Source: a virus
Virus record (IMG/VR): IMGVR_UViG_3300032070_000632
Coordinates: 1-64,000 of that record
Direction: 5' to 3' (one strand)
DNA: 64,000 nt
The notes below the pieces were generated by a model that made no database searches, was not told the origin of the DNA, and saw only the letters and a list, made by a program, of their open reading frames with translations. Positions 12,809-64,000 of the stretch are shown piece after piece. Within the stretch, counting starts at the first letter, position 1; the number at the start of each line of letters is the position of its first letter. The position numbers and the translations under genes were made by a program.

Positions 12809-13070
12809 ATTTGTCAATAATCAGGAATTTAAGATGTGCATGGCTTGCAAAGAATGGAAAGAAATTGATTGTTTTGACAAAGAGATGTATGAGTTTGGCG
12901 TCGGAGCCAGGCAATCGGATTTACGGATAAATTTAAGATGCAAGCAATGCAAGAGCGAACTACCCAAAAGAAGACTGCATTTTTGCGGATTCGTTATCAC
13001 TAAAAAAGACAGGGAAGAAAACAGAAAAAAGCAGACAGAATTTTTAAAATCTAAAATGGTAAAAATATGA
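12792..13070 (+). CDS. Zinc-finger hypothetical protein
   Basis: CMACKEWK...F...CKQC. Confidence 0.5.
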   Translation: MIQMNRFVNNQEFKMCMACKEWKEIDCFDKEMYEFGVGARQSDLRINLRCKQCKSELPKRRLHFCGFVITKKDREENRKKQTEFLKSKMVKI

Positions 13071-13576
13071 CGGAAATATTATCCATAATTTTGGCTTTCC
13101 TGTTAATCGGCGGCTCGTCTTTATTTAATGGACCGGCGGATATTGGGGGAATGACCAAACCGAAGTCATTGCCTAAGTCTTATGAAGTTAGCAACGCTAA
13201 AGATGTTGACGCCAATAAAATAATTGATTTAATAAACGAATACCGGACGGGAAAAGGATTAAATAAATTATCAAAAAACGATACGCTTAAATCCAGCAGT
13301 AAATTAAAGGTCGCTGACATGGACGCCAATGATTATTTTGGCCATTACAGCCCGAGCGGAGAAAAATGGTCGGTTAATTTTAAGAAAGCCGGTTATAAAT
13401 ATAAAACTTCGGGCGAAGTCCTGGCGATTGGTTATGCCACGCCGGCGGAGATAGTGATTGGCTGGGAAAATTCTCCATCCCATAACAATATTTTAATTTA
13501 TGCCAATTATAAAGAAATTAATTGTGCGAGCATTAAAACATTGGTGGCTTGCCATTTCGGCGAACCAACTGATTAA
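13067..13576 (+). CDS. CAP/SCP-domain secreted or anchored protein
   Basis: N-terminal TM; INEYR..GL..L, YFGHYSPSG, GEVLA, GWENSPSHNNI. Confidence 0.85.
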   Translation: MTEILSIILAFLLIGGSSLFNGPADIGGMTKPKSLPKSYEVSNAKDVDANKIIDLINEYRTGKGLNKLSKNDTLKSSSKLKVADMDANDYFGHYSPSGEKWSVNFKKAGYKYKTSGEVLAIGYATPAEIVIGWENSPSHNNILIYANYKEINCASIKTLVACHFGEPTD

Positions 13577-23089: not shown

Positions 23090-23338
23090 ATGCCATACCC
23101 AGGCGTATCTCCATCTCAAACAGCTAAAGTAGAAAGTTGCGTCAGTGATTTGATGGCTGACCCAAAGTTCAAACCACGCAAAAAAGGTCAAACTAAAAAG
23201 AGTGCCGCCGTGGCAGTCTGCGTTTCTTCCGTTAAGGGCGATAAAAAGTCCAAGGATTATCAAGAAGAAATTTTTGATAAATACGTGGCCACGCCCGAAG
23301 CGGAAGATTTTGTTAAACGAACGGAAACATATGAATAA
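23090..23338 (+). CDS. Small head-associated protein
   Basis: MPYPG...KVESCV...SAAVAVC; C-terminus resembles the scaffold C-terminus. Confidence 0.6.
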   Translation: MPYPGVSPSQTAKVESCVSDLMADPKFKPRKKGQTKKSAAVAVCVSSVKGDKKSKDYQEEIFDKYVATPEAEDFVKRTETYE

Positions 23339-25585: not shown

Positions 25586-26635
25586 ATGTTTAACAGACAA
25601 CCGCCTTTATTGCAAAAAGCTACTTTGACCAGAGTGGTGAATAAGATAAAAATCTCATCTCACCTGGGCGAAGAGTTTTTGCCGTTTAAACCGGTGCCAA
25701 CTGAGAAAACAATTTGGGATGTCGTGGAAGCGGACATGGGAATGGCGAAATTTGTGGCTCCTGACGCTGAATCGCCTTTGGTTGATAAACGAAAAATCGA
25801 CCAGGTGATTGCGACTATCGCTTCCATTCGTGAAAAGGAAAGATTCATCGAATCCGACCTTCGAGCGATTAGAGAAGCGGGTGAGCTTCCGATAGTGGAG
25901 GATTCTCCGACACTAATGAACGCTCTCAAGACCCAAGCCGAACAGCGGCTTCGTGATTCTCTCACACGGCTTAAAAACAGGGTAGCGAACAGACTAGAGT
26001 GGATGCGATGGCAAGCGATGTTAGGTACCGTCAGCTATGACGATGGCGATGTAATATTCTCCGTCGATTATGGCATCCCAGCGGCTAATAAAGTTACCTT
26101 ATCAGGTACGGCCGTCTGGAGCGATACTACCAACGCCGACCCGCTAAAGAATATCAATGACTGGATTGATACCTACATTGATAATCAAAGCGGTCTTGCT
26201 CCGACCCGCATGGTCATGTCCCGCAAATCATTAGGTTACATTGCTCAAAACGCCAAAATTCGGGATTTATTGAAGTATAACAACAACATTAATCCGGAAG
26301 TTTTTGGTTCGCCGAAGATGGCCCAACAGTTGATTCTCAACTTGACGGACATCGTTAAAATTCACGTATATGATTCTTTTTATGAAGATGCCTCAGGGAC
26401 CTCTTTGAGATACCTGGCTCAAAATAAAATTATCATGCTGCCTGAACCAGTAACGAACGGCGAAACTTTGGGCGACGTTGCCGATGGTCCTCATCCGCAC
26501 AACAACTACAAACCAGGTCTTTATACTTGGACTGAAACCAAGAAAGACCCCTATACAACGTTTGTGGGAGTTGGCCGTGAGTGCTTCCCTCGTATTTTCC
26601 ATCCAGATTGGATTTTTGTGGCAACCGTATATTAA
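25586..26635 (+). CDS. Major capsid protein (lambda gpE-like, HK97 fold)
   Basis: RLEWMRWQAM, VDYGIP, WSD...ADPL, DP...FP; size and position. Confidence 0.9.
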   Translation: MFNRQPPLLQKATLTRVVNKIKISSHLGEEFLPFKPVPTEKTIWDVVEADMGMAKFVAPDAESPLVDKRKIDQVIATIASIREKERFIESDLRAIREAGELPIVEDSPTLMNALKTQAEQRLRDSLTRLKNRVANRLEWMRWQAMLGTVSYDDGDVIFSVDYGIPAANKVTLSGTAVWSDTTNADPLKNINDWIDTYIDNQSGLAPTRMVMSRKSLGYIAQNAKIRDLLKYNNNINPEVFGSPKMAQQLILNLTDIVKIHVYDSFYEDASGTSLRYLAQNKIIMLPEPVTNGETLGDVADGPHPHNNYKPGLYTWTETKKDPYTTFVGVGRECFPRIFHPDWIFVATVY

Positions 26636-27566: not shown

Positions 27567-28637
27567 ATGAACATTTTATTTATAGCGGATGACAAAAAAG
27601 GCACCGGCTTCTATCGCATGATGATGCCGGCCAATGAAATCCGCAAAGCCAACATGGCCAACGTGAGACTTTGTTTCGCCGTTGACCAAAATGACATTCA
27701 ATGGGCAGACATCGTGGTAGTCCAGCGGGCACACCATCCGTCAATGTTTGAAATGTTTGACTGGGCGAAATCAATCGGCAAAGTAATGGTGTACGAAATT
27801 GATGATTACTTGCAGGGAGTTGACCCGACCAATCCGGCCTATCGCAGTTGGACGCCGGCCGGACCGCACTTACAGCGGGCACTGGCTTTGATGGAAAAAG
27901 CGGATGCGATGACGGTGACTACCGACCGGTTGCAGAGAGAATATGCTCCTTGGAATAAAAACATTTTCGTCATCCCGAATTTTCTGGATAAAACCTTGTT
28001 TCCGCCGGCGAAAAAAGTTTATAAAGATAAATTAATTAGAATTGGTTATACCGGATTTTCTTCCCACCAGAAAGACTTGGAATTGATTGATGATATAATG
28101 ACGAAGATATGCGAGAAGTATCCGGAAGTGAGATTTAAGGTAATGGGAATAATTCCCGAGCATGCGTTCAAAAGAATACCGCAATATAATTATAAATATC
28201 GGGGAGTAAAGATAAAATCGCAGTTGGAATATATTAGCGGAACGGACATTACGGCTTACTTTTATAAGTTGGCCGACCAAGGATGGGATATTGGATTGGC
28301 ACCATTGATTGATAATTCATTCAATGCCTGCAAATCAGACCTGAAAATAAAGGAATATGGCGCATTGAGCATACCGGTCGTGGCTTCCAACGTCTATCCA
28401 TACCAGAAAGCGATAAAACAGGGATACAACGGCTTTTTAGCCTCCACGGGCAAGGAATGGTACGAAGCGATAGAAAAATTGATTCTGGACAAAAAATTGA
28501 GACAGGAAATAGGCAATAACAACCTGGTATGGGTGAATGAAAACGGTTGGATTCAGGATAATGTCGCTGTCTGGATTAATACTTATCAACATATTTATGA
28601 TAATATGTTAAAAGCGACGGGAATAACGCCGCAATAA
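27567..28637 (+). CDS. GT-B (GT4-like) glycosyltransferase
   Basis: GFYRMMMP, YEIDD, DIGLAPL..N.FN.CKSDLKIKEY, PVVAS. Confidence 0.9.
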   Translation: MNILFIADDKKGTGFYRMMMPANEIRKANMANVRLCFAVDQNDIQWADIVVVQRAHHPSMFEMFDWAKSIGKVMVYEIDDYLQGVDPTNPAYRSWTPAGPHLQRALALMEKADAMTVTTDRLQREYAPWNKNIFVIPNFLDKTLFPPAKKVYKDKLIRIGYTGFSSHQKDLELIDDIMTKICEKYPEVRFKVMGIIPEHAFKRIPQYNYKYRGVKIKSQLEYISGTDITAYFYKLADQGWDIGLAPLIDNSFNACKSDLKIKEYGALSIPVVASNVYPYQKAIKQGYNGFLASTGKEWYEAIEKLILDKKLRQEIGNNNLVWVNENGWIQDNVAVWINTYQHIYDNMLKATGITPQ

Positions 28638-32576: not shown

Positions 32577-34142
32577 ATGAATGAAGACAAAAAAGAATTG
32601 CCCGATGGTTGGTTTCACGACGGCGATATAAAACAATATCGTTCTTTAGCAGAGCAAGTGCCTAATAACGGGTCAATTATTGAATTAGGCGTATGGAAAG
32701 GCAGAAGTTTATGCTCTATTGCCGACATAATAAATAGAAAAAATTTAAAAGTATTCGCGGTAGATACTTTTAAAGGTACGCCGGGCGAAGATAAAGAACA
32801 TAAAGAAGCCAAAAAAATAGATTTGCGGAAAGTTTTTGAAGAGAATATGAGAAAATTTGGCATTGCCGTTCAGATTTACGCAATGACTACGGATGAAGCG
32901 GCGGAAAAGATAACAGATAAGTTTGATTTAATTTTTATAGATGCCGACCATTCTTTTGAAGCTATCACTAAAGATTTAGCTAACTGGGTTCCTAAATGCA
33001 AAGGCATTATAGCGGGGCACGATTATGAAAAAGACAGCATTAAAAAAGCAGTTGATAAAATATTTCCTAATGTTAATTATTTGCATTGTTTCACCGACCC
33101 CGGACGAGGGACAATGTGGTGGAATGATTGTAGAAAAATAACTATGAGCACAAAAAAGTTAGATGTGATTATTCCCGCGTATAAAGCGCAAAATACCATA
33201 GAACGAACTTTGGCTTCTATTGTGATGCAATCCGTGGTGGATAAGATAACTGTTACTATCGTGAATGACGCTGACGGGATTGGCTATGACAAGTTTGTCA
33301 AGCAGTTTGCCGACTATATGGATATTAAAGAAATAACAATGAAAGTTAATGGCGGTCCTGGTGTAGCTCGGCAATACGGGATAGACAATACTATCTCGCC
33401 ATATTTTACCTGCATAGACGCTGACGATACTTTCGCTGGAGCATTTGCTTTAGAAATACTATTAAGGGGCATAGAAGCTAATCCTGGGTATCATACGGTA
33501 GTTGGCAGTTTTGCCGAACAACATAATTTTTTGACTTTTATCAATCATCAGAATGATATGGTTTGGATGTTTGGCAAGTTATACACTAGAACTTTTTGCG
33601 AGAAATATAAAATTAGATTTAACGACACCAGAGCCAATGAAGATAACGGTTTTAACACTATTATCAGATTAGTAAGTTCGCCCGAAGAAAAAGTTATGTT
33701 TTTGCCTGACATAGTTTATTTTTGGCATCATAAAGAAGATTCAATTACCAGAATAAATAACGCCCAGTATTCATACGACCAAAGTTTTTGCGGATATACC
33801 GACAACATGATTTACGCCATTAAGCACGCCAAGAGAATAAAACCGTTTAATAATTACATCGATATGTGGGCAATTCAGACTATGGCGCAATTATATAATT
33901 ATTATTATCAGACTGTTAAAAGAGATCCCAGGTTCACGGAACAAAACTATTCTTATTGCGTTAAATATTATCAGGAAGTTTTTAAGGATATGTATGAAAG
34001 AATGGACAAGTCAAATTTTGATGACATATTCGCTCAGACTTTATCGGAACAAGCCATTAACATGAAGGACAATGTGCCTGATAAAACTATTTATCAGTTT
34101 ATTGAAGAATTAAAAAATTATGGCGGCAGTAACATCATTTAG
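32577..34142 (+). CDS. Class I SAM methyltransferase fused to GT-A (GT2) glycosyltransferase
   Basis: IELGVWKGRS, FIDADHS, GHDY; then DVIIPAY, VND, GPGVARQYG, IDADD, NED. Confidence 0.9.
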   Translation: MNEDKKELPDGWFHDGDIKQYRSLAEQVPNNGSIIELGVWKGRSLCSIADIINRKNLKVFAVDTFKGTPGEDKEHKEAKKIDLRKVFEENMRKFGIAVQIYAMTTDEAAEKITDKFDLIFIDADHSFEAITKDLANWVPKCKGIIAGHDYEKDSIKKAVDKIFPNVNYLHCFTDPGRGTMWWNDCRKITMSTKKLDVIIPAYKAQNTIERTLASIVMQSVVDKITVTIVNDADGIGYDKFVKQFADYMDIKEITMKVNGGPGVARQYGIDNTISPYFTCIDADDTFAGAFALEILLRGIEANPGYHTVVGSFAEQHNFLTFINHQNDMVWMFGKLYTRTFCEKYKIRFNDTRANEDNGFNTIIRLVSSPEEKVMFLPDIVYFWHHKEDSITRINNAQYSYDQSFCGYTDNMIYAIKHAKRIKPFNNYIDMWAIQTMAQLYNYYYQTVKRDPRFTEQNYSYCVKYYQEVFKDMYERMDKSNFDDIFAQTLSEQAINMKDNVPDKTIYQFIEELKNYGGSNII

Positions 34143-39054: not shown

Positions 39055-40041
39055 ATGTCCTATTCATCACAAACTGGCCATTTTGGGGCCAGAAAACAAG
39101 ACAGTAAAGGAACTTACAAAACTCCGTTATTCTTCTTCAAGTTGACGGCTGGCGGTTTGGGTTCTAATTCGGAATTATTGGTTCCGGACCCGGAAATCGG
39201 TGGCGGTCGTGATATTGATGAAGCGGCCGTGGGAGCAATTTCTTACGGAGGCACGTATGAATTTAATTTTCGTTCCGAAGATATTGGCGTTTTATTGTAT
39301 GCCGCTTTAGGTGCGGTAACTGTATCCGGTTTGGGAGGCGGTGCTTATAAGCATACTTTCACTCCGGCCAATACTTTACCTTGGTTATCGATTGAGGAAA
39401 AAATATCCGATACTTACGATACTTTCCAATATACCGATGCCAGAGTTTCATCTTTGGAATTAAATTCAGACGCTAACGCTTTCTTGAACGGTTCGTGCGA
39501 TATGATTGCCATTACGCAATCAGGCAATGCTACTGCATCATCGCCGACGTTTGACGCTTCCCCGATTTTAACCGCTCATACCGGTTATATCAGTTTGGAA
39601 GGTGCCCAAATTTACGTCCGCAGTGCGAAATTCTCTTTCAATAATAATTTGGAAGATGACGATTTCCGCGTTGGACGCCGCACGCTGGGAGATATTCCCG
39701 AGCATCGCCGTGAGTTATCCGCTACTTTAACTATTCGCCCCGATAGCAACGCCCTATATCGCAAAGCCGTTTATGGCAATGCTTCGGCTCACGTTCCAAC
39801 CAATGACGTCTATTCCGGTGAATTGATAATGCAGTGGGATTCCGGTTCAAACGTGATTGGTTCCACCGCCTATCCTTACAAACTCAAAGTCACTGTTCCT
39901 AATGCGTATTTCCGCCCGTTCACCATTGAACCGTCCGGAGACGACATTATTGAACACGATTTGGAACTTTTACCAGTTGCTTTGTCAGGGAACATCGTCA
40001 CAATTGAATTGTGGAATGGAGTGGCGAGTTTTGAGGCATAA
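39055..40041 (+). CDS. Major tail tube protein
   Basis: LLYAALG, YKHTFTP..LPWLSIE, FNNNL; position. Confidence 0.85.
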   Translation: MSYSSQTGHFGARKQDSKGTYKTPLFFFKLTAGGLGSNSELLVPDPEIGGGRDIDEAAVGAISYGGTYEFNFRSEDIGVLLYAALGAVTVSGLGGGAYKHTFTPANTLPWLSIEEKISDTYDTFQYTDARVSSLELNSDANAFLNGSCDMIAITQSGNATASSPTFDASPILTAHTGYISLEGAQIYVRSAKFSFNNNLEDDDFRVGRRTLGDIPEHRRELSATLTIRPDSNALYRKAVYGNASAHVPTNDVYSGELIMQWDSGSNVIGSTAYPYKLKVTVPNAYFRPFTIEPSGDDIIEHDLELLPVALSGNIVTIELWNGVASFEA

Positions 40042-47348: not shown

Positions 47349-49256
47349 ATGGCGGATGAGACAACAATTGAAACTAATACCAAACGGCATGATGGAGCCG
47401 TCTGGATTAATGGTGGTCGGTTGTATGCCACGACGGCGGCCGGAATTTTAGCTATTCGTGCCGGCGAAATTTTAGGTTCGGGAATCGCTTTAAAAACAAT
47501 CAGTGAAAGCAATATCGCCGACCGAGCGATAACGACCGTTAAAGTGGCTTTAGGAGCCATTCAAGAGTCATTAATCGCCGCTGGAGCGGTTACGGAGACT
47601 AAAATTGATGATGATGCCATTACTTCCCCTAAAATCTTCGCTGGGGCGGTGGTAGCGGGCAAGATAGGGGCAAATGCCGTCTATGCCAATAATATCATCG
47701 CTGGGGCCGTCACAACCGTTAAAATAGCCGTCTCAGGTGTGGCGGCGGACCGGATTGCGGCCAATGCTATTGTTTCATCTAAAATCGCCGCCAACGCCAT
47801 CCAGTCAATTCATATCGCCGCTTATCAAGTGATAGCGGAAAAAATCGGTTCCGGGACTATTGATACGCAAAAAATAACTCTATCCGGCACCGGAGCGAAT
47901 GGCATTATTGAAATAGATGCCCAGACGTCAAATAACAGACCAACAATTAGAGTTGCTAAACAAGGAGTTAATTTGGCTTTGTTTGGAAATTTAAAAGAGG
48001 AGACTGGCGTGGAAGAATATGGTTTATGGGTAAAATCGGGAGCGGCCTATATCGGCGGTTATCGTTTATACGAAGCGGTGGTTGACGCCGGCGGAGATGG
48101 CGATTACACGACAATCAAAGATGCGGTTGATGCCGGCAAGACTAGAATTTTTGTCCGAAACGGAACATATACTCTCGCCGCCGACATAACCATCAGCAAT
48201 AATGACGTGACGATTATCGGAGAAAGCAGGGACGGAGTAATCATAAATTCCGGCGCGACTTCAACAAAATATAAAATATTAGTCACTGGACATCGATGCA
48301 CTCTCAGTAATTTTACAAAAGACCGGGGACCAAGCAGTGAATGGAGTATTAAAGCCAGCGGAGACGATTGCCATATTTATAACGTAAAAATAGAAGACAG
48401 TGATTCTCATTCACGAGGAATTTATTTTGCCGTTGGCGCTGATAACGGCATTGTTAATAATTGCATTATAAAAGTGGCCGTCTGGGGGATTTATTGCGCT
48501 GGAGATTTTACAAAAATTACCGATAATTATTTTGACAGCGGTGACGGCGGAGAATTGATGATTTCAGGAGATAATAATGTATTTTCCAGAAATACCTGCA
48601 AGAGAACTGGTTCGACTAACACTGCCGGCATTGATATAACCGGAATTAATAATATTTGTGCGGATAATTACGTTTATCATTCGTCAACCACTAATGTTGG
48701 AATTTACGTTAACGGCAATTACAATAAAATTTCCAATAATTATATTGAAAATTTTGAGAAGGGAATATACGTCGGCGGGGATATTGGCATTACCATAACC
48801 AATAATACGATTTATAATAGTGCCGTTACTGGAATATACGTCATTTCTTCCAGCACCGCCGGAGAAGGATTTTATACTATCTCAAACAATGTGGTTTATA
48901 GTTCTGGAACCACCGGCATTAAACTTTCTTATGGATTTAGAATAGTTTGCACTTCCAACGCGGTATATGGTTCGGGAGGAAATGGAATTGAACGTGAAGA
49001 TGTGACTTTTAGAGAAGCGATTATTTCAAATAATATGGTGCAAGGATGCGCTGGGGCTGGATTTTCATTCCGAGGGACATATCAGGCAATCAGATGTTCA
49101 TTTGTCGGCAATATGTCGCTTGACAATGGCACTTACGGATTTGACATAAAGGATTACGAGTGCGTTATCGGCAATAATTTAGCTAACGGAAACGGAACGG
49201 CTAATTATAATGTCGATGCCGATGCTTCTACTATTTATGCTCACAACTATGGTTAA
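47349..49256 (+). CDS. Tailspike/receptor-binding protein with right-handed beta-helix
   Basis: ITxxKIxxGA stalk repeats; GDYTTIKDAV, IFVRNGTY, repeated I(S/T)NN..Y and GIY. Confidence 0.85.
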   Translation: MADETTIETNTKRHDGAVWINGGRLYATTAAGILAIRAGEILGSGIALKTISESNIADRAITTVKVALGAIQESLIAAGAVTETKIDDDAITSPKIFAGAVVAGKIGANAVYANNIIAGAVTTVKIAVSGVAADRIAANAIVSSKIAANAIQSIHIAAYQVIAEKIGSGTIDTQKITLSGTGANGIIEIDAQTSNNRPTIRVAKQGVNLALFGNLKEETGVEEYGLWVKSGAAYIGGYRLYEAVVDAGGDGDYTTIKDAVDAGKTRIFVRNGTYTLAADITISNNDVTIIGESRDGVIINSGATSTKYKILVTGHRCTLSNFTKDRGPSSEWSIKASGDDCHIYNVKIEDSDSHSRGIYFAVGADNGIVNNCIIKVAVWGIYCAGDFTKITDNYFDSGDGGELMISGDNNVFSRNTCKRTGSTNTAGIDITGINNICADNYVYHSSTTNVGIYVNGNYNKISNNYIENFEKGIYVGGDIGITITNNTIYNSAVTGIYVISSSTAGEGFYTISNNVVYSSGTTGIKLSYGFRIVCTSNAVYGSGGNGIEREDVTFREAIISNNMVQGCAGAGFSFRGTYQAIRCSFVGNMSLDNGTYGFDIKDYECVIGNNLANGNGTANYNVDADASTIYAHNYG

Positions 49257-49496: not shown

Positions 49497-50237
49497 ATGC
49501 CAAATTTTCAATTAAAAAAACCGCTTGATTATTGCGTAGTCACACAGCCTTTTGGCGTCAACTATGTAGATTTTTATCAGAAAAATTTTAATCCGCCAAT
49601 GAACGGCCATAACGGAACTGATTTTCGCACAAATGGAGATAAAGTCTATGCTTGTTTTGATGGTTTTGCTATTTTTGCCGGCACATACAGCGACGGTGGA
49701 ATCGGAGTAGAGATGGTCAGCGACCACATTGAAGAAGAAAAAAGGTATAAGGCAATATATTATCATTTAAAATCAGTAAACGTTAAAATAGACGACTGGA
49801 TAAAAGCCGGAGATTTGATAGGAATTTCCGATAACACTGGTCTTATGACTACCGGTTCTCATTTGCATTTAGGATTAAAAATTTGCGATGCCTATACGCC
49901 ATTTGCCACTCTGAATAAAGACAACGGATATTATGGCTGTATTGACCTTGTGCCTTTAATGGAAGAAGGTTGGGATAAGTTGCCGGTTGATTTATATTAC
50001 GGCAAACAAAGAAATTGGTATGCCGAATGGCTGTTAAGATTTAAAAATGCGTGGGTCCATCGCCGGCTGATTCAGGTTTATCATCGTGGTCCGTTATCGT
50101 TGACAAACCGAGAAATGTCGGCCATAGTTTATGGTAGTTGGGGATTTGATGAAGTATTAAATCCTGCCTTATGGCCAATTTGGGCAATGGTTACAAAATC
50201 AGATTGGGAAATAAATAAAAAAGTTCCCTATTGTTAA
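49497..50237 (+). CDS. M23 peptidase, probable endolysin
   Basis: GHNGTDF, YYHL, GDLIGISDNTG.TTGSHLHLG. Confidence 0.88.
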   Translation: MPNFQLKKPLDYCVVTQPFGVNYVDFYQKNFNPPMNGHNGTDFRTNGDKVYACFDGFAIFAGTYSDGGIGVEMVSDHIEEEKRYKAIYYHLKSVNVKIDDWIKAGDLIGISDNTGLMTTGSHLHLGLKICDAYTPFATLNKDNGYYGCIDLVPLMEEGWDKLPVDLYYGKQRNWYAEWLLRFKNAWVHRRLIQVYHRGPLSLTNREMSAIVYGSWGFDEVLNPALWPIWAMVTKSDWEINKKVPYC

Positions 50238-55492: not shown

Positions 55493-55521
55493 TTGACTTT
55501 TTTTAAAAGATGGTGTATAAT
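55493..55521 (+). promoter_or_regulatory. Conserved phage promoter, copy 3; likely leaderless transcript
   Basis: TTGACT-17-TATAAT; ATG 55528 lies 7 nt after the -10 box. Confidence 0.8.
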
Positions 55522-55527
55522 GACAAT

Positions 55528-56463
55528 ATGGTATCAGGCAAAGCAAAAGCAAAAGATAAAATAGATTTCAACGACAAGAAGCTTATCAGTTATACCCGCT
55601 TCTCGTCGTTTATGAATTGTCCCTATAAATTCAGTCTAAAATATAAAAAAGGGATAAGACCGGAAAAAGAATCTGTTAAATATTCTTTTGGAAAAGCCAT
55701 GCACGCCGCATTGGCTTATTTTTATGAAACGAAATGCACGGAAGAAATGGCGATTGAATATTTTTCTTTAATTTGGGAGGAGATGACTAAAAGCGAAGCG
55801 ATTGATTATGGCACTAAAAAAGTGACTAAGGCGATGGTTAAAGAAGACCCAGGACTAGCTGATGAAGAGCATGTGGCTATCACGCCAGCTTATTATCTTG
55901 ATTTGGGGGCAAGGATGCTGATGAGTTATTTTGAAACTTATCGGGGAGAAAAAATAGAGGTTGTCGGGGTGGAACAATCATTTACTTGTCCGTTTAAAAA
56001 TCCGGACACTAATTATAAAAACAGAAGATGGGAATTAACCGGCGTGATTGATTTATTGTTAAAAAATGAAGATGGAACTTATGAATTTTGGGACCATAAA
56101 ATGATGGGGAAAAAAGTCAGTGCCGGCGTATTTCAACTTTCTCATCAGGTTCCGGCTTATATTTTAGGGGCCGCTTTTTTGCTTCAAATTCCCATTGATA
56201 AAATTAAAAGATGCGTTTTTAATATTATTTATAAAACCGGAGATTTAGAATGTGAACGGATAGAGGTGACGAGGACTAAGGAAGAAATGACCATGTTTTT
56301 TAAACAATTGACGCATGTCGCTAAGGCGATTGATAATGATAAAATTTTTCAAAATTTTAGTTTTGCCTGTGCTTCTTGCGAATATCTTAATTATTGTTTG
56401 GGGAAAAAGGATAAATATCTCGATACGATATTTTCCGATGCCGAAGACCCCGATGAATTATAA
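55528..56463 (+). CDS. PD-(D/E)XK exonuclease (RecB/Cas4-like)
   Basis: ISYTRFSSFMNCP, GKAMH, GVIDL, WDHK, QVPAY, CASCEY..YC. Confidence 0.85.
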   Translation: MVSGKAKAKDKIDFNDKKLISYTRFSSFMNCPYKFSLKYKKGIRPEKESVKYSFGKAMHAALAYFYETKCTEEMAIEYFSLIWEEMTKSEAIDYGTKKVTKAMVKEDPGLADEEHVAITPAYYLDLGARMLMSYFETYRGEKIEVVGVEQSFTCPFKNPDTNYKNRRWELTGVIDLLLKNEDGTYEFWDHKMMGKKVSAGVFQLSHQVPAYILGAAFLLQIPIDKIKRCVFNIIYKTGDLECERIEVTRTKEEMTMFFKQLTHVAKAIDNDKIFQNFSFACASCEYLNYCLGKKDKYLDTIFSDAEDPDEL

Positions 56464-56764: not shown

Positions 56765-57169
56765 ATGGAAAGAATAACTTTAAATTCAGTATCAGTCGGC
56801 AAACAGGTCAGAAGAGTTCCTCATAACAATAGCAATATGCGGATGCACTGGACTGTAAAAAATCAATGGAAACACGCCTGGCAGAAAGAAATTGAAATGC
56901 AGATAATGATTAATCGCAAGAAATTAGGAAAGTTACCCTTGATAAAACCGGAAATAAAATTTATATTTTATATGTGCAAACCATATGACTTGGATGGGGC
57001 ATATAATGCGGCCAAACCGTTGTTGGACAGTTTAAAAATTTGGAAAAGCAAAAATAATCCTGGTATGGGAATAATTACGGATGATGATGATAAAAATTTA
57101 TCTTATTGCGTTTTGACAAAGAAAGTTTATAGCGTAAAAGAGGAGCGAGTAGAATTAATCATTAATTAA
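56765..57169 (+). CDS. RusA-like Holliday junction resolvase
   Basis: DLDG...KPLLDSL...GIITDDD. Confidence 0.75.
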   Translation: MERITLNSVSVGKQVRRVPHNNSNMRMHWTVKNQWKHAWQKEIEMQIMINRKKLGKLPLIKPEIKFIFYMCKPYDLDGAYNAAKPLLDSLKIWKSKNNPGMGIITDDDDKNLSYCVLTKKVYSVKEERVELIIN

Positions 57170-57175
57170 ATAATT

Positions 57176-57979
57176 ATGCCAAGCGAAACTGTTAAACAGT
57201 CAGTGGGAATAATCGGTATGGGTGTATTAGGCCGTGCGATTAAGAATTATTATAAAAATGCTCTCGTATTTGACATCAATCCGGAAATCGATTCCAATGA
57301 TTTTAATTTGGTCGCCCAACGAGACTGGGTTTTTGTTTGCGTCCCCACTCCATCAACCGCAGATGGAAAAATTGATTTATCGGCGATAGAGGAAACGATA
57401 GAAAGATTGAGCAAGACGGCTATTTATGAAAAAACTAAAATAGTCATTAAATCAACCGTCGTTCCTGGCACCGCCCAACGATTGCAGGACCAGTATCCGC
57501 ATTTACAGATTATTTCCTGTCCGGAATTTTTAACGGAGAACACGGCTTGTGAAGATTTTGCTTATCCGGACAAAAATATAATCGGTACTACCAGGCAATA
57601 CCCGCGGCTCGGAGCAGACCTGGCCAGAATATTGCCGGTGGCACCGGTTTTAATTATGACTTCAACGGAAGCGGAAATGGTTAAGTATGCCATTAATTCT
57701 TATTACGCCATGAAAGTTATTTTTGCGAATGAATTGTATGATTTATGCGAGGCATTGGATGCAAATTATAATGCCGTGCATCGAGGATTGGTGGCTGATA
57801 AGAGAATTAATGATTCTCATTTTTCTATCTTTCACGGCACGCATCGTGGTTTCGGCGGAAAATGTTTAACAAAAGATACTATGGCTATTGTTGAAAAGGG
57901 CAAAGAGCTTGGAATTGATATGGGTCTGTTAAAACAGGTTTTAGAATTAAATAAAAAATTTATTAAGATAACTTTTTAA
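57176..57979 (+). CDS. UDP-glucose/GDP-mannose dehydrogenase family, short form
   Basis: GIIGMGVLG, VCVPTP, KSTVVPGT, PEFL, KYAIN, GFGGKCLTKD. Confidence 0.92.
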   Translation: MPSETVKQSVGIIGMGVLGRAIKNYYKNALVFDINPEIDSNDFNLVAQRDWVFVCVPTPSTADGKIDLSAIEETIERLSKTAIYEKTKIVIKSTVVPGTAQRLQDQYPHLQIISCPEFLTENTACEDFAYPDKNIIGTTRQYPRLGADLARILPVAPVLIMTSTEAEMVKYAINSYYAMKVIFANELYDLCEALDANYNAVHRGLVADKRINDSHFSIFHGTHRGFGGKCLTKDTMAIVEKGKELGIDMGLLKQVLELNKKFIKITF

Positions 57980-57995
57980 ATATTAATAAAAATAT

Positions 57996-58238
57996 ATGGG
58001 AATACCATCGATTAAAATAGTGGAGAGTGAAGAAAATGAGAAAGAAAAAATACTTTCTCATGGCAACATTCACTCTATCAGAAAAGATATTGACGGAATA
58101 ATCAAGAGAGTGAAAGAAATACAATTATCAACTCCCGATTCACGCCAGAATGACCTTGCTTATCAGCGGACGATAGAACACGCCATTGTCGGGCTGATTG
58201 AAGCTAAAATGTGGCTCGGCGAATATATAGTGTTATGA
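57996..58238 (+). CDS. Small helical protein, Acb2/Tad1-like
   Basis: RTIEHAIVGLIEAKMWLG. Confidence 0.5.
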   Translation: MGIPSIKIVESEENEKEKILSHGNIHSIRKDIDGIIKRVKEIQLSTPDSRQNDLAYQRTIEHAIVGLIEAKMWLGEYIVL

Positions 58239-58909
58239 TTGAAGTATGCTTCTGCGTTTATAAAAGATGGCAGCGTGTGCCGGATATTTTGCAAAATTTA
58301 TTAAACCAAACAAATCAAGATTTTAAAGTTAATATTTGGAATAACAGCGGTCAGAATCTGGATGTCAGCAAATTTCCCGCCGGTCGGATTCAAGTGATTG
58401 ATTTGGGATGCAATCTTGGTTCGGCCGCCAGATTTAAAATAGTGCCACGGACAATGGGAAATCCAATAATATTTTTTGATGATGATGAAATTTTAGATAA
58501 TGATTTTGTTGATTATTATTGGAAACAATATCAGAAATTCGGACCAGATTATATTTTAGGATGGTTCACGAGAATTTTTAACCAAGAACATTATTGGCAC
58601 TCAATTCCTTATTCTATTTATGGCACGGAGGTTGATTATGTCGGTACTGGCGGAATGATATTAGACCGGAAAATTTTTGACCAGGAACAGTCTTTAGCGG
58701 ATATACCGGAAGAGTTTAGCCGAGTCGAAGATTTGTATTTAGGTTATATTGCCAGAATGAAATATGGCATGAAATTATCGGCGATTGAGAAAAAATGTTC
58801 TATTATGGTAGATGTCCATGACCAATTCCGGTCGTTGACTGATTATAAACAAAAAACCTTTTTATTCATGCGACAGAAAGGGTGGAAAATTTTAAAAGAT
58901 AAAATATGA
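58235..58909 (+). CDS. GT-A glycosyltransferase
   Basis: IWNN, NLGSAARF, FFDDD, DYVGTGG, EDL. Confidence 0.8.
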   Translation: MIEVCFCVYKRWQRVPDILQNLLNQTNQDFKVNIWNNSGQNLDVSKFPAGRIQVIDLGCNLGSAARFKIVPRTMGNPIIFFDDDEILDNDFVDYYWKQYQKFGPDYILGWFTRIFNQEHYWHSIPYSIYGTEVDYVGTGGMILDRKIFDQEQSLADIPEEFSRVEDLYLGYIARMKYGMKLSAIEKKCSIMVDVHDQFRSLTDYKQKTFLFMRQKGWKILKDKI

Positions 58910-59493
58910 ATATTGAAAAAGAAAAAGAATATTGGAATAAAAGATACGCCAGCAATAAAACCAGTGGTGGCGGTTCATATGGAGAAGAGGCTGAATTTAA
59001 GTTAAAATCAATTAATGAATTTATTATCGATAAAGAAAAAATAAGAACAATAGTTGATGTTGGTTGCGGGGACTTCAATATTGGTTCGCAATTCATTAAA
59101 TTTTTTCCCAACGCCAAATATTTAGGATTGGATGTTTCTAACGAGATAATCAAAAGACATCAAAAAAAATACATATCAGATAATTTACGGTTTGACGTAA
59201 TTAACGAAAATAGAGGATTGATTTTCTTCTGTCCGGATATTCTTATTTGTTTTGATATGTTGTTTCATGTGATGGATGACGAAACTTATAATAATATTTT
59301 AGAAAATTTAAAAAAATCATGGAGAAACTATCTTTTAATTGCTACCTATAACGATACCAGATTGGATATGCCGTATGATTTGAATTATATAAAAAAGAGA
59401 AAATTTGACCCTAAATTTTTTGCTGAGGAATGGAAAGAAATTTTAATCCCTTTCTACGATGGAAATAAATCATTATATTTTTTCACTAAATAA
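58906..59493 (+). CDS. Class I SAM methyltransferase
   Basis: YW..RY..SGGGS, VDVGCGD, YLGLDVS, DMLFH. Confidence 0.85.
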   Translation: MNIEKEKEYWNKRYASNKTSGGGSYGEEAEFKLKSINEFIIDKEKIRTIVDVGCGDFNIGSQFIKFFPNAKYLGLDVSNEIIKRHQKKYISDNLRFDVINENRGLIFFCPDILICFDMLFHVMDDETYNNILENLKKSWRNYLLIATYNDTRLDMPYDLNYIKKRKFDPKFFAEEWKEILIPFYDGNKSLYFFTK

Positions 59494-59496
59494 TTT

Positions 59497-60090
59497 ATGC
59501 CCATAGCCAGACCAGATGTGATACCGTTCGTTTGCGAATGGTTTAGCCAAAAAAGCATTAAAGAAATAAAAAGCGTTTTGGATGTGGGGAGCGGTTTTGG
59601 CTTGTGGGGATTTTTAGCCAGGCAATATATTCAGATTTGGCAGCCAGGAATAAAAGAAGATGACTACATAAATTTTAAAAATAAGATGAGAGTTGATGCG
59701 ATTGAGATAGTTGATTTTTACGTTACCGACATCCAGCGTCAAATTTACAATAACATTTATTGTGCCGACATGCGGATAAACTTGCCATCGTTAAGCTGGT
59801 ATGACCTTATAATCTGCGGCGATATTTTAGAACATATCAATTTTACTGACGGACTAAAACTTTTAGAGGAAATGAGAAGGCGGTCAAGATGGGTAATAAT
59901 AACTATGCCTGATTATTTTGCCAGAGGAAATGAGATAATGGGGCAGATAAGCGATTTGCACGAATATGTCTGGAAAGACAATGATTTCCCCGACCGGCCA
60001 GTTGTTACCCATATTAACAAACAAAAAGTAATTATTTACGAAGATTCTAATTATGCCGACAAAAGAAAACTCTTTGAAAAATCTCGTTGA
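59497..60090 (+). CDS. Class I SAM methyltransferase
   Basis: VLDVGSGFG, DAIE, YDLIICGDILEH. Confidence 0.85.
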   Translation: MPIARPDVIPFVCEWFSQKSIKEIKSVLDVGSGFGLWGFLARQYIQIWQPGIKEDDYINFKNKMRVDAIEIVDFYVTDIQRQIYNNIYCADMRINLPSLSWYDLIICGDILEHINFTDGLKLLEEMRRRSRWVIITMPDYFARGNEIMGQISDLHEYVWKDNDFPDRPVVTHINKQKVIIYEDSNYADKRKLFEKSR

Positions 60091-60673
60091 TTTTAAAAAA
60101 GTAATGGACGAACTAAAGATATTTTTTTGGTTAGATTCCGGCACTTTACTCGGGGCTTATCGTGATAAAAATATTATTACCGGCGACGAGGATGACAGCG
60201 ATATTTGCATGTGGAAAGACAATGCGGTCCGCAGTCCTGAATTTCTAAAAAAATTAAGAGAAGCCGGATTTTCCATTCTGCATGATTGGCGGTTTGTCAA
60301 TGCCACTTCCGAAGGAATTGGCATTAAAAGGGATGGCAATAAGATTGATATTGTCATGATGCACCGCAAGAAAAACGAACATGGCGATGTGGCGTTTTAT
60401 TTGTCCAGAAATTTTAGCGGACAAATGGGTTCAATGCCCTATTATGCCTTTGTCTTCCCTGGAAAACTGTATGATGAATTTAATGAAATAGAATTAGGCG
60501 GAGTTAAATATAATTGTCCTAAAGATGTTGAGGGATATTTAGTGGCTCGCTACGGCCAAAATTGGAATATTCCAATTTTACGTGGACAGGGTTGGAATCC
60601 TATCGACCCGTCTAATAATCCTTGTCATCGCACTAACTGGAAATATGACGACCCAAAAGCAATGCTCTACTAG
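60053..60673 (+). CDS. LicD-family (fukutin-like) CDP-alcohol phosphotransferase
   Basis: FWLDSGTLLGAYRD...DEDDSD, KIDI, YLVARYG.NW.IP. Confidence 0.85.
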   Translation: MPTKENSLKNLVDFKKVMDELKIFFWLDSGTLLGAYRDKNIITGDEDDSDICMWKDNAVRSPEFLKKLREAGFSILHDWRFVNATSEGIGIKRDGNKIDIVMMHRKKNEHGDVAFYLSRNFSGQMGSMPYYAFVFPGKLYDEFNEIELGGVKYNCPKDVEGYLVARYGQNWNIPILRGQGWNPIDPSNNPCHRTNWKYDDPKAMLY

Positions 60674-61514
60674 GGTTGATTCCCTTTATGAGCTTTTACA
60701 AAAAAATAAATTTGTCAGAGTGCTTGAGGCCCATAATGGCTTGTCTGGTTTAATTGTGGAAAATTCAGACTTTGATGCCATTTGGGAGAGTTCATTGACT
60801 GATTCGGCTTCTAAGGGCTTGCCGGACATCGAACTGGTTAGTATGGATTCCAGGATGGAAACTATCAGGCAGATTATTGACGTGACCACCAAGCCGATTA
60901 TTGTTGATGGCGACACCGGCGGCCAGATTGACCATTTTCCGTATTGGGTAAATAAAATGGAGAAGGCTGGCGTATCAGCCGTGATTATTGAAGATAAAGC
61001 ATTTCCTAAAAGGAATAGTCTGGATGAAAGTGCCCAACATCAGTTAGAAGAAGTGGATATTTTTGCTAAAAAGATTGAAGCCGGAGTAAAAGCGAAGATG
61101 AACGATAAATTTATGATTATCGCCCGTTTGGAAAGTTTGATTGCCCAGCATTCAGTTTATGAAGCGTTAATCAGAGCCGAGGCATTTTTGAAAGCTGGCG
61201 TGGACGGGATTATGATTCATTCTAAAGAAAAAATTTCTGCCACGGAAGTTTTTGAGTTTGCAAGAAGATTTAAAATGATGTCAAAAAAACCATTGGTTTG
61301 CGTACCTACCACTTATAATGATATTTTTGAACAACAATTACAGGAGGCGGGATTTAATATAGTTATTCATGCCAACCACTTATTGCGGGCATCTTTTAAA
61401 GCAATGGAGAAAGCAGCGGAAAAAATTTCCGTCAATCACCGCAGTAAGGAATTGGATGATGATATTTCTTCGGTGAAAGAAATATTTAACATTGTCGGTT
61501 ATGATAAATTATAA
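60645..61514 (+). CDS. pepM: Phosphoenolpyruvate mutase
   Basis: Diagnostic EDKxxxxxNS loop (EDKAFPKRNS); EAHNGLSG, DGDTGG, ARLESLI, ANHLLRA. Confidence 0.95.
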   Translation: MTTQKQCSTRVDSLYELLQKNKFVRVLEAHNGLSGLIVENSDFDAIWESSLTDSASKGLPDIELVSMDSRMETIRQIIDVTTKPIIVDGDTGGQIDHFPYWVNKMEKAGVSAVIIEDKAFPKRNSLDESAQHQLEEVDIFAKKIEAGVKAKMNDKFMIIARLESLIAQHSVYEALIRAEAFLKAGVDGIMIHSKEKISATEVFEFARRFKMMSKKPLVCVPTTYNDIFEQQLQEAGFNIVIHANHLLRASFKAMEKAAEKISVNHRSKELDDDISSVKEIFNIVGYDKL

Positions 61515-62682
61515 AAAAATTATTGAGTGTTTAAAGGAAAATGAAATTAAATTTATTACTGGCGTTCCAGACAGTACGCTTAAGCACATAATCTGTGCTA
61601 TCGCCGACGATAAAGATTTTCAACACGTTCCAGCCACTAATGAAGGAGAGGCCGTGGCCTTGGCAGCCGGATATTTTTTTGCCACAGGAAAAGTTCCCAT
61701 GGTATATATGCAAAATGATGGATTATTTAATGCTGCTAATGCTTTAGCTTCGTTATGCAGTTTTAATGTTTATGACGTCCCGATGCTTTTAATGATTGGC
61801 AAACGTGGCATTGAAGGCGATGAGCCACAACATTTAATGGCAGGAGAAATGTTGGAAGATTTTTTAAAATTATTACATATCCCCTGTAATTATCAACATA
61901 TAGAAAATAATGAAAATATTGAAGATGAAATTTTGGAAGACCTTAGTTCAGCAATAATTTACGCTCGCCGAGAAATACGTCCGGCAGCCATTATTTTTCA
62001 AAAAGGAAGTATCTATGATTTAGAAGAAAAAAATAAAATTGGAACGACGGAACCATCAATGCGGGAGAAGTGCCTTGATATTTTATTGAACTATATCGGT
62101 ATAGGTATAGTTGTTTCCACTACTGGTTTAACTTCTCGTGAATTGTATGAATTGAGGAAAAAAAGAGGTGAAAAAACAGATGATATTTTAATGGTTGGTT
62201 CTATGGGATGTGCTTCGGCGATTGGTTTAGGCGTAGCACTTCAAGAAAATAACGATTATCAGCACGATAAGTCGAGTTACCGCAATGTTTATGTTCTGGA
62301 TGGTGATGGAGCGGCTTTAATGATGTTGGGAAATATGGCTACTATCGGTTATTATCTGCCGGAAAATTTAGTGCATATTATTTTTGACAATGGCGGTTAT
62401 GTCAGCACGGGCAAACAACAACGGATAGGTGATAGAATTAATTGGCAAATGCTCGCCCAGGGATTGGGATATTATACTTTTAAAGAGGTTGACGGCCGAA
62501 GCATGGCTGAAACTAAATGTTTCGGTAAATTGGGTGAAATATTGGATTTTCATAAAATGCCTATGCCGGCATTGATAGTGATTAAAATTGACCAGTCGGT
62601 CCGTGGTGATTTAGGCAGACCAAAAGATTTAAAGGAAATCAGAAAAAATTTTATGATTAAAATTTTTAACAAAGACATATGA
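61501..62682 (+). CDS. ppd: Phosphonopyruvate decarboxylase
   Basis: TGVPDS, NEGEAVALAAG, YMQN, DEPQH, STTG..SREL, VGSMGCA, DGDGA...N TPP motif; follows pepM. Confidence 0.93.
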   Translation: MINYKKIIECLKENEIKFITGVPDSTLKHIICAIADDKDFQHVPATNEGEAVALAAGYFFATGKVPMVYMQNDGLFNAANALASLCSFNVYDVPMLLMIGKRGIEGDEPQHLMAGEMLEDFLKLLHIPCNYQHIENNENIEDEILEDLSSAIIYARREIRPAAIIFQKGSIYDLEEKNKIGTTEPSMREKCLDILLNYIGIGIVVSTTGLTSRELYELRKKRGEKTDDILMVGSMGCASAIGLGVALQENNDYQHDKSSYRNVYVLDGDGAALMMLGNMATIGYYLPENLVHIIFDNGGYVSTGKQQRIGDRINWQMLAQGLGYYTFKEVDGRSMAETKCFGKLGEILDFHKMPMPALIVIKIDQSVRGDLGRPKDLKEIRKNFMIKIFNKDI

Positions 62683-63674
62683 TTCTATACGGAGATTTCA
62701 AAGAAAAAATTAAAAAAATAACAAAGAGAGAATTTGGCGTGGAAATGCTGGTTTTAACTAATGATGTTTTTAAAGAATTTATTTTGGAAAATCCTAATGG
62801 GTTGACAGTGCCTGCCAATCCGACTGATAAATTTTTAGATAAAGCCAGAAGTTTCGCCAGCGACCGATTTTATAAAGGACCATTCAAATTTATTGTTTCC
62901 ATCGGCGGCGGGTCGGTAATTGACGTGGGAAAAATATTATCAGTATTATTTGAAATTCCGCACATTGTCGTGCCTACCACCTGCGGAAGCGGAAGCGAAG
63001 CAACTTCCTATGCGGTGATAATAGAAAAAGAAAAAAAGGAAACAATAACTAATAAAGAGTTTTTGCCTAAATATGTGGTTTATGATGAATATTTTTTAAA
63101 AGAAATTGACCATAATAAAGAGGCAATAGCATTAATAGCTGGAGTATTTGATGTATTATGCCATTGCGTTGAATCTTATCTTTCGCCAAAATCAACTCCA
63201 GTAAGTGAAAAATATGTCCATAAGGCGATAAATTTATGGAAAAGATTTTCTTGGCAATGGTTGGATGGACAAAAAAAAGCATCATTGGAAATGTTTGAAG
63301 CGGCATTTTATGCCGGCAAAGCGATTGATATTACGCAGACTGGAATTTGCCATGCTGTTTCTTATCCACTAACAACAAAATATGGCATACCACATGGCTT
63401 GGCGGCCGCATCCATGCTGGCAACTTTAATTTTTTATATCGACCAATTAGATAAAAAAGCGGAAGAAAGATTCTATCAGTTATTTTCCAAAAAAGAAAGA
63501 TACGGATTGCTCGGGTTGATAAGTATTTACTGCAAAATGGAAGAAATGAAAAAACTTTTTAAAAAAATTGATATTGAATATGTTATGAAAGAGGCAAAAA
63601 AATCTTCCAGATTTAAGAATAGTATTTTAAAATTGCCACCTAAATTTATTTATTTTTTCAATTATGTTAAATAG
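62679..63674 (+). CDS. Fe-dependent alcohol dehydrogenase (phosphonoacetaldehyde reductase-like)
   Basis: IGGGSVIDVGK, PTTCGSGSEAT, D.LCH.VES, CHAVSYPLT..YGIPHG. Confidence 0.88.
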   Translation: MILYGDFKEKIKKITKREFGVEMLVLTNDVFKEFILENPNGLTVPANPTDKFLDKARSFASDRFYKGPFKFIVSIGGGSVIDVGKILSVLFEIPHIVVPTTCGSGSEATSYAVIIEKEKKETITNKEFLPKYVVYDEYFLKEIDHNKEAIALIAGVFDVLCHCVESYLSPKSTPVSEKYVHKAINLWKRFSWQWLDGQKKASLEMFEAAFYAGKAIDITQTGICHAVSYPLTTKYGIPHGLAAASMLATLIFYIDQLDKKAEERFYQLFSKKERYGLLGLISIYCKMEEMKKLFKKIDIEYVMKEAKKSSRFKNSILKLPPKFIYFFNYVK

Positions 63675-64000
63675 AATAGGTTATCTCCCAATGACGGCTG
63701 ATTTGTTGCATGTCGGGCACATTCACGCCATTTCTCAAAGTCTTGTTTTTTGCCGTCATTTAATAATTGGCTTATTAAACGACAAAGCGATTGAAGATTA
63801 TAAAGAAAAACCGCCAGTAATACCATTTAAAGAAAGAAAAGCGATGTTGGAATATGTTTTGCCGTTTTTTTCAAAACATACCGGTCAGACTACCCAAATT
63901 GTTGAACAAGATAATATTGATTTTACCGAAAATTTAAAAAAATATAAACCGGATTGCGTATTGAGCGGGGATGGCTGGCAAGAAGAAGAAAGAAAATCTG
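63664..64000 (+). CDS. Cytidylyltransferase (phosphonate-activating type), partial, not in the ORF track
   Basis: MLNRIGYLPMTADLLHVGHI...IGLLND.AI..YK...IPFKERK; open to the window edge. Confidence 0.85.
   Translation, partial: MLNRIGYLPMTADLLHVGHIHAISQSLVFCRHLIIGLLNDKAIEDYKEKPPVIPFKERKAMLEYVLPFFSKHTGQTTQIVEQDNIDFTENLKKYKPDCVLSGDGWQEEERKS

Follow-up and report, generated by a model that had tools for sequence, protein, structure and literature searches.

We analysed a 64,000-nt stretch of viral DNA (the window), which represents bases 1-64000 of the 77,054-bp IMG/VR record IMGVR_UViG_3300032070_000632, window and record coordinates being the same. Its right end, from position 57176, contains a cluster of genes predicted to synthesise, activate and transfer a phosphonate, i.e. 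a compound with a carbon-phosphorus (C-P) bond. The core of this cluster codes for phosphoenolpyruvate mutase (PepM, also called Ppm), phosphonopyruvate decarboxylase (Ppd), an Fe-dependent alcohol dehydrogenase (Fe-ADH), a cytidylyltransferase with an HVGH motif and a LicD-family phosphotransferase, and it lies among genes for glycosyltransferases (GTs) and methyltransferases. All of them belong to a plus-strand operon that starts at a divergent promoter pair at 55.46-55.52 kb and continues past the window edge up to position 70,263 (Table 1). Within the window, neighbouring genes of the operon overlap or are at most 16 nt apart; over its whole length the junctions either overlap or leave no more than 22 nt, with a single gap of 372 nt at 65.3-65.7 kb. 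All operon frames are intact and translationally coupled and retain their catalytic motifs, and the GC content of the operon is that of the remaining genome. In total, the operon encodes six GTs, three methyltransferases (one of them a weak match) and one PIG-L deacetylase.

An earlier reading made from the letters alone (the sequence-only reading) had described a tightly coupled operon that leads from the promoter at 55493, through an exonuclease and RusA, into a nucleotide-sugar dehydrogenase, a GT2, two methyltransferases, LicD, PepM, Ppd, Fe-ADH and the cytidylyltransferase. This arrangement was confirmed, and nearly all of its elements were found where that reading had placed them. Family scans recovered the GT2 and identified the exonuclease as a PD-(D/E)XK nuclease; the product of the supposed RusA gene, a 134-aa protein and one of two unknown proteins encoded between the nuclease and the dehydrogenase, gave no match in Pfam, PHROGs or PDB. 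One of the two methyltransferases is at or above its Pfam cut-offs, whereas the other is a weak match that stays below. When the contig was followed beyond the window, as had been suggested, the operon was seen to end against a convergent tyrosine integrase gene.

PepM scored 347.4 bits against the equivalog model TIGR02320 (cut-off 319.55), and the models for phosphonopyruvate hydrolase and methylisocitrate lyase remained far below their own cut-offs on this protein. Its residues 137-146 read EDKAFPKRNS and match the EDKX5NS motif, which sets PepM apart from other members of the isocitrate-lyase superfamily; the segment is invariant in alignments of 24 and of 36 homologues. The possibility of an inactive PepM, raised in the earlier reading, gains no support from a sequence that passes the equivalog cut-off and keeps the diagnostic motif. 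The equilibrium of the PepM reaction is unfavourable and a coupled downstream Ppd pulls it forward; here the Ppd gene starts before pepM has ended. Ppd just reaches the cut-off of TIGR03297 (313 vs. 312.5 bits, a marginal score) and contains the thiamine pyrophosphate (TPP) motif GDG-X26-N at residue 271. With regard to Fe-ADH, family membership is solid and the GGGS motif is present, but the more specific role of phosphonoacetaldehyde reductase giving 2-hydroxyethylphosphonate (HEP), which is predicted from gene order, was not borne out by the corresponding equivalog model (see below). The cytidylyltransferase matches PF01467 (35.2 bits) and has HVGH at residues 16-19. Its best match in PDB is 5x3d, the cytidylyltransferase (CyTase) domain of Fom1 (E 3.2e-15), ahead of the ethanolamine-phosphate and glycerol-3-phosphate cytidylyltransferases, and this Fom1 domain cytidylylates HEP (Rice et al. 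2019, PMC6697681). A second PF01467 cytidylyltransferase, with an HKGH motif, is encoded at 10894-11322, far from the cluster and next to the gene for a sigma-70 region-4 protein; in about 35 loci, cellular and viral, a homologue of this enzyme immediately precedes PepM.

The LicD protein scores above the PF04991 cut-off (35.7 vs. 22.6 bits), the alignment covering only residues 22-56 with the N-terminal metal site. The motif GTLLGAYRD...DEDDSD is present, and G30, L33, G34, R37, D45, D48 and D50 vary little or not at all among 72 aligned sequences of the 2,332 homologues collected. When its AF2 model (pLDDT 93.9) was compared with PDB by Foldseek, nine of the ten best matches were FKRP chains (E 3.5e-7 to 2e-6, TM 0.52-0.57), the top ones belonging to FKRP complexes with CMP, CDP-ribitol and sugar acceptor. 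FKRP is a CDP-ribitol-dependent ribitol-phosphate transferase. The fold match supports phosphotransfer from a CMP donor to a sugar, and LicD is predicted, in its genomic context, to be a CMP-phosphonate:glycan transferase. The GT2 encoded at 58211-58909 is 52-53% identical to the N-terminal half of GT2-LicD fusions of 424-432 aa in related phages, the two domains forming a single polypeptide in G001, G002 and G004. The two additional glycosyltransferases that had been noticed among the head genes are indeed there: a GT4, three genes after the major capsid gene, and a methyltransferase-GT2 fusion.

The protein read as a nucleotide-sugar dehydrogenase has the N-terminal and central UDPG_MGDP_dh domains and keeps the GxGxxG motif and the catalytic Cys motif GGKCLTKD, but it lacks the C-terminal UDP-binding domain PF03720 and misses the cut-off of the subfamily model TIGR03026 (162.7 vs. 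189.8 bits, with model positions 69-295 of 413 aligned). It belongs to a genuine, virus-dominated family of short (about 265 aa), two-domain UGDH-like proteins. Homologues are found near PepM in other viral contigs (L011, L013, L031, L036 and L037), and ESM Atlas contains a cluster of 403-aa fusions between such a protein and a PF01467 cytidylyltransferase (81 members, 93% viral). The substrate of the short dehydrogenase may be a CMP- or CDP-activated alcohol, such as CMP-HEP, rather than UDP-glucose. The 80-aa and 134-aa ORFs on either side of its gene were considered as a split-off UGDH domain and rejected, neither having any match.

The DNA that bears the cluster is that of a tailed phage of siphovirus type. 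The termini of the record share an identical overlap of 127 bp, which is a signature of circular assembly, and the record is rated 100% complete. A 45-kb contig from a sediment metagenome (the probable source run) carries the region 53.5-73 kb, including both cluster junctions, with zero differences; near-identical fragments from a second sediment sample cover every bin of the stretch, and a third sample contains a diverged strain. The terminal overlap and the junction-spanning contig therefore place the cluster within the phage chromosome. The sequence-only reading had taken an attachment (att) site ahead of the cluster as a sign against phage ownership; no att site or host flank was found there, and 57-77 kb contains no tRNA gene as an att marker. 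In single-sequence scans for the portal protein, no related prophage was detected in the contigs of 185,579 species genomes, and viral contigs gave two small fragments only; a single-sequence scan of viral contigs for PepM gave no match.

In the PepM tree, the protein of this phage groups with those of podoviruses in a single clade (SH-aLRT 99), and all 80 best cellular sequences fall outside it. The best cellular PepM from the 185,579 species genomes is no more than 58% identical, as compared to 65-72% on viral or unbinned contigs. This joint phage-only clade indicates that the module circulates among phages of unrelated morphotypes, across which the cassette is 37-70% identical. In at least seven podovirus contigs (G001, G002/G004, G005, G016, G026, the 42-kb JGI contig L126, and L127), the cassette is located between the major capsid gene (PF25209) and an SU10-type head-tail adaptor gene (PF24175), with TerL and portal upstream. 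The gene order in G001 is scaffold-like protein, capsid protein (PF25209), GT, GT2-LicD, PepM, split Ppd, cytidylyltransferase, FkbM, PIG-L, adaptor (PF24175) and fibre. G003, a complete 40.6-kb genome with terminal repeats, has the cassette elsewhere and a GT4 gene beside the capsid gene, and no tyrosine or serine recombinase/integrase was found in it. A capsid-adjacent GT-B is conserved in this phage (G000), L039, G003, G005, G016, L207, L208, L211 and L212; in L039, a siphovirus fragment, the homologue of the GT4 at 27567-28637 is kept in synteny with 69% identity. The flanking GT2, LicD, FkbM and PIG-L genes are shared by the IMG/VR contigs G001, G002, G003 and G004, while this synteny occurs in 0 of the 80 best cellular loci. 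Hence, of the two comparisons that the earlier reading had proposed, the one between host polysaccharide loci and phages shows the cluster to be syntenic with other phages and not with cellular loci, and the search of viral databases for the cassette beside capsid genes yielded the capsid-adaptor placement of the podovirus clade.

Some relatives contain further genes of interest. The podovirus cassette of G005 encodes a B12-binding radical S-adenosylmethionine (SAM) enzyme of AprD4/TokK/OxsB-like type (L010:3926-5431), adjoined by a 465-aa putative peptidase (3k9t-like), and a homologue of the radical-SAM enzyme is present in G026 (L033). Fom3, which methylates CMP-HEP, is of the same B12-radical-SAM class; this hints at 2-hydroxypropylphosphonate in the G005 and G026 phages. 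A second all-viral PepM clade (SH-aLRT 96) consists of 17 contigs (among L018-L038, that is IMG/VR G011-G031) and includes the 189-kb G025 with terminal repeats. LicD is also encoded in G011, G012, G014 and G015 of this second clade and, outside it, in G017 (425 kb, 97% complete) and G018. In the cultured 128-kb Vibrio phage Va2 (L007, MW073017, 104837-110942), the ribonucleotide reductase genes are flanked by genes annotated as phosphoenolpyruvate mutase and TPP-binding protein; the putative mutase is 27% identical to the PepM described here over 59% of its length. Phosphonate genes seem to be commoner in large phages than the literature suggests. Two faecal PepM fragments deposited in GenBank as 'Bacteriophage sp.' (L005, MT837901, and L006, MT836947) were not accepted as phage, since their sequences fall within the PepMs of Clostridia and probably stem from bacteria, and phrog_7162 was rejected as a specific marker, given that 5 of 14 control cellular genomes had a match as well.

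Table 1. Features of the glycan operon and other genes of the phage (positions in the 77,054-bp record; the window ends at 64000).
Feature	Position	Strand	Basis or remark
Divergent leftward promoter	55490-55461	-	11/12 consensus positions; consensus match only
Sigma-70-like promoter TTGACT-17-TATAAT	55493-55521	+	11/12 consensus positions; consensus match only
PD-(D/E)XK recombination nuclease, operon gene 1	55510-56463	+	PF12705, E 1.9e-24
134-aa protein, no assigned family	56765-57169	+	no Pfam, PHROGs or PDB match
Short two-domain UGDH-like NAD dehydrogenase	57176-57979	+	UDPG_MGDP_dh N and central domains
80-aa protein	57996-58238	+	no match
GT2 glycosyltransferase	58211-58909	+
Class I SAM methyltransferase	58906-59493	+	PF13649 and PF13847, at/above cut-off
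Possible second methyltransferase, weak	59497-60090	+	PF13489, 17.9 bits vs. cut-off 27; no NCBIfam match
LicD-family phosphotransferase	60053-60673	+	PF04991
Phosphoenolpyruvate mutase PepM	60582-61514	+	TIGR02320; gene-caller start ~60645 = 289 aa
Phosphonopyruvate decarboxylase Ppd, TPP enzyme	61492-62682	+	TIGR03297
Fe-ADH	62679-63674	+
Cytidylyltransferase (HVGH)	63664-64101	+	PF01467; full gene, crosses the window edge
FkbM methyltransferase	64088-64747		operon, past window end
PIG-L deacetylase	64744-65316		AHLDDE and HSDH motifs
GT2	65688-66377		operon, past window end
GT2	66567-67289		operon, past window end
GT2	67286-67960		operon, past window end
GT-B, 302 aa	67982-68890		operon, past window end
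GT4, 458 aa	68887-70263		last operon gene
Tyrosine integrase, convergent	70211-71032	-	overlaps GT4 gene end by 53 bp
Putative large terminase, 1400-aa intein-laden ORF	15845-20047		position, 65-67% match to L039/L040; no terminase family scored
Mu-type portal	20028-22247
Head protease	23202-25145
E-type major capsid protein	25586-26635
GT4 (GT-B) glycosyltransferase, head module	27567-28637	+	three genes after major capsid gene
Methyltransferase-GT2 fusion, head/neck module	32577-34142	+	PF13578 and PF00535
Tail tube	39055-40041
Putative tape measure, 1347 aa	40847-44890		size, position, hydrophobic segments; no family search
Beta-helix tailspike	47349-49256
M23 lysin	49497-50237
DnaB-like helicase and primase		-

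Among the other genes of the phage, the putative terminase ORF contains two or three inteins (Hint/intein splicing, LAGLIDADG and HNH endonuclease domains). Further cargo at 4354-4821, 13067-13576, 505-1179 and 1187-3456 comprises a peptide deformylase, a CAP/SCP-domain protein, RadC, an N6/N4 DNA methylase and a fusion of a C5-methylase fragment with a ResIII fragment.

A hydropathy scan of all 111 ORFs of the genome revealed no polytopic membrane protein, more than three hydrophobic segments being present solely in the putative tape measure protein. The sole membrane-like candidate of the cluster is a doubtful 94-aa ORF with two hydrophobic segments (65247-65531); it falls in the single large gap of the operon, shares sequence with the end of the PIG-L gene and is possibly spurious. 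The cassettes of the relatives likewise contain no polytopic membrane protein. It follows that Wzx, Wzy, a priming phosphoglycosyltransferase, GtrA/C and an ABC transporter are absent and, since no genes for priming, flipping and polymerisation on a lipid carrier or for export are present, that the acceptor of the glycan must be accessible from the cytoplasm, as virion proteins under assembly would be.

The gene content suggests the following pathway. PepM would convert phosphoenolpyruvate (PEP) into phosphonopyruvate and Ppd would convert this into phosphonoacetaldehyde, the identity of both enzymes being supported by equivalog score and motif. Fe-ADH, to judge from gene order, would then form HEP, and the Fom1-type cytidylyltransferase, to judge from homology, would form CMP-HEP. 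From this donor the FKRP-like LicD may move the phosphonyl group to a sugar hydroxyl; the acceptor sugar is probably added by the GT2 encoded at 58211, because GT2 and LicD are one polypeptide in the relatives. The five further transferases of the operon and the two of the head module would assemble the glycan, PIG-L would deacetylate it and the methyltransferases would methylate it.

As to the target of this pathway, we lean, by a modest degree, towards virion proteins (capsid or head decoration), which, as predicted from the genes, would be phosphonoglycosylated in the cytoplasm. In virulent-looking podoviruses the cassette is presumably expressed with the capsid genes, no export is encoded and a transferase adjoins the capsid gene, and virion-protein modification is therefore the best explanation. 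Mycobacteriophages offer a precedent for it (Freeman et al. 2023, as cited in PMC12619734), to which a phosphonate cap would be added here. The sequence-only reading had named the virion as a plausible target, and the capsid-adaptor placement together with the missing export genes lends this idea strong indirect support. A wider proposal, on which our judgement is evenly balanced, is that tailed phages living in sediments equip their particles with C-P glycans carrying HEP or a methylated derivative, by a pathway that the virus encodes and that involves no export, the trait being ancestral in the podovirus clade and horizontally moved to this unrelated 77-kb siphovirus-type phage.

Several observations weigh against the virion as target, or against the pathway as drawn. 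In this phage the 13-kb operon lies outside the late module and follows recombination genes from the 55.5-kb promoter. The late genes are marked by a 16-nt leader, GAACTGCNNGACAGTC, which has exactly three copies in the 77-kb genome (at 15801, 22532 and 36852); these precede terL, the scaffold/capsid module and the neck/tail module, and two of them follow TTGACA/TATAAT promoters. The leader was not found ahead of the glycan operon. The operon also adjoins the integrase gene, the classic position of a moron, and morons occur inside late operons as well, which makes the placement in the relatives suggestive only. No obvious Ser/Thr-rich acceptor tails were seen at the C-termini of the capsid and tail-tube proteins. 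On the side of the chemistry, Fe-ADH reaches just 96 bits on the phosphonoacetaldehyde reductase equivalog TIGR03405 (PhpC/FomC/PsrA-type), as compared to a cut-off of 423.7, with a match that begins at residue 94, and the cassettes of G001 and G002 are without the ADH, so that the final phosphonate may differ.

Some of these points would fit modification of the host envelope, in which the soluble enzymes act on undecaprenyl-linked precursors of the host at the inner membrane face and host flippases and ligases display the phosphonylated glycan, the benefit being lysogenic conversion, superinfection exclusion or the masking of receptors on debris. We consider this unlikely, although it is the rival with the most in its favour. 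The operon adjoins a tyrosine integrase gene and is transcribed with genes of early/middle type rather than from the late leader; the beta-helix tailspike suggests a polysaccharide-coated host; bacterial LicD, GT2 and GT4 enzymes normally work on lipid-linked precursors (PMC6697681), and bacterial phosphonates are mostly found on surface glycans (PMC8942020, PMC8931226). However, neither GtrA/B/C, Wzx, Wzy, a priming transferase nor any polytopic membrane protein is encoded, podoviruses carry the same cassette in their late operon, between capsid and adaptor genes, a complete genome free of recombinases has it too, and the synteny from GT2-LicD to PIG-L is absent from all 80 of the best cellular loci. 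Serotype-converting prophage modules (GtrABC, O-acetylases, Wzy variants) do share with the operon of this phage the position at the integrase, and one of its GT2 proteins has a weak GtrB-like match. In contrast to those modules, the cluster has no GtrA/GtrC or polytopic membrane protein, is far larger (its eight transferase domains are far above what is known for serotype conversion) and occurs also in the integrase-free relative G003.

Virion proteins as acceptors have further competitors, which are weaker. It is improbable that LicD acts on a lipid or glycolipid to give a phosphonolipid, or that the product is a soluble phosphonate conjugate. Among the NCBIfam models, LicD comes closest to the diacylglycerol cholinephosphotransferase Mf1 of Mycoplasma, but the 50 bits reached are far under the cut-off of 225; LicD is fused to GT2 in relatives and surrounded by glycosyltransferases everywhere, and the genome is without lipid-synthesis genes. 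In favour of such a product, the B12-radical-SAM enzyme of some relatives recalls small-molecule phosphonate pathways. Hypermodification of the phage DNA, with the transferases and LicD placing a phosphonylated sugar on it to evade restriction, is very improbable: the operon does open with recombination genes, and glycosylated phage DNA has precedents (Pyle et al. 2024, as cited in PMC12619734), but the genome encodes no thymidylate-synthase-like hydroxymethylase, no DNA polymerase was seen among the genes scanned, DNA methylases are already present, and the cassette of the relatives is part of a late structural operon. Finally, a cluster of recently captured host DNA with no role in the phage is the least credible of all, since, even if the donor lineage could be missing from databases, the coupled frames are intact, the catalytic motifs are kept, the GC content matches the genome, and the cassette is conserved across unrelated morphotypes with a phage-only PepM clade.

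Phosphonates withstand phosphatases and many hydrolases and account for much of the high-molecular-weight organic phosphorus in the sea. To our knowledge, the known makers of phosphonates are cells. In the present case, the full chain of synthesis, activation and transfer is carried by a complete phage and by a whole clade of others, and in that clade it is wired into the capsid operon. If virion proteins are indeed the target, glycosylation of phage particles would reach past the actinobacteriophages, and the modifications of virus surfaces would gain a new chemical class. C-P chemistry would then be on record for a virus particle for the first time, virions would be a direct source of hydrolysis-resistant organic phosphorus, and the phosphonate pool of the environment would have a viral input that can be tested. 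The compact sets of soluble enzymes, such as the GT2-LicD fusions and the stand-alone HEP cytidylyltransferase, are useful for phosphonoglycan biochemistry. In the literature searched, we found no report of a phage-encoded phosphonate pathway or of C-P chemistry linked to capsid genes. The inventory of Li et al. 2022, in which 364 huge phage genomes were scanned as well, lists no Ppm for the viruses of RefSeq and gives one giant-virus metagenome-assembled genome (MAG) as the sole viral case (PMC8942020).

The closest cellular counterparts are the clusters for phosphonoglycan tailoring in bacteria, which combine Ppm-Ppd-AEPT or PhpC with the PntC cytidylyltransferase, LicD-like transferases and glycosyltransferases (Rice et al. 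2019, PMC6697681; Li et al. 2022, PMC8942020). The enzyme families and the succession of C-P formation, decarboxylation, reduction, CMP activation and LicD transfer are the same. Unlike them, the system described here is encoded by a phage, has a PepM of a phage-only clade, is without genes for a lipid carrier, a flippase or export, follows the HEP branch by means of an ADH rather than the common 2-aminoethylphosphonate (AEP) branch, and is placed between capsid and adaptor genes in the relatives. The early steps of fosfomycin synthesis (Fom1 with cytidylyltransferase and PepM, Fom2 as Ppd, FomC as Fe-ADH, and the B12 radical SAM enzyme Fom3) use the same PepM-Ppd-ADH-cytidylyltransferase set, and the relatives G005 and G026 carry a B12-radical-SAM enzyme too. 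In contrast to fosfomycin, CMP-HEP is predicted to be the donor for LicD and not a transient antibiotic intermediate, there is no epoxidase and no FomD hydrolase, and the cytidylyltransferase is a separate protein.

Among viruses, chloroviruses and mimivirus likewise encode glycan machinery that is independent of the host, and the giant-virus contig with Ppm-Ppd-AEPT (a nucleocytoplasmic large DNA virus, NCLDV, MAG; GCF 881) was predicted to make a viral phosphonoglycan (PMC8942020). These systems differ in belonging to eukaryotic viruses and in following the AEP branch, and a link to capsid genes has not been reported for them. With regard to phages, glycosylation of capsid and tail-tube subunits takes place in the cytoplasm in the mycobacteriophages Che8, Corndog and Myrna (Freeman et al. 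2023, as summarised in PMC12619734 and PMC11256854). To the extent that these summaries describe them, those phages resemble the present one in encoding their own glycosyltransferases and methyltransferases, in having the transferases in or near the structural genes and in the lack of export genes. The mycobacteriophage operons, in the same summaries, consist of two to four genes and involve no phosphonate, whereas eight transferase domains and a full predicted C-P pathway are encoded here. The enzymology of the cluster thus matches that of bacterial phosphonoglycan tailoring and early fosfomycin synthesis, and glycosylation of the virion by phage enzymes is likewise known.

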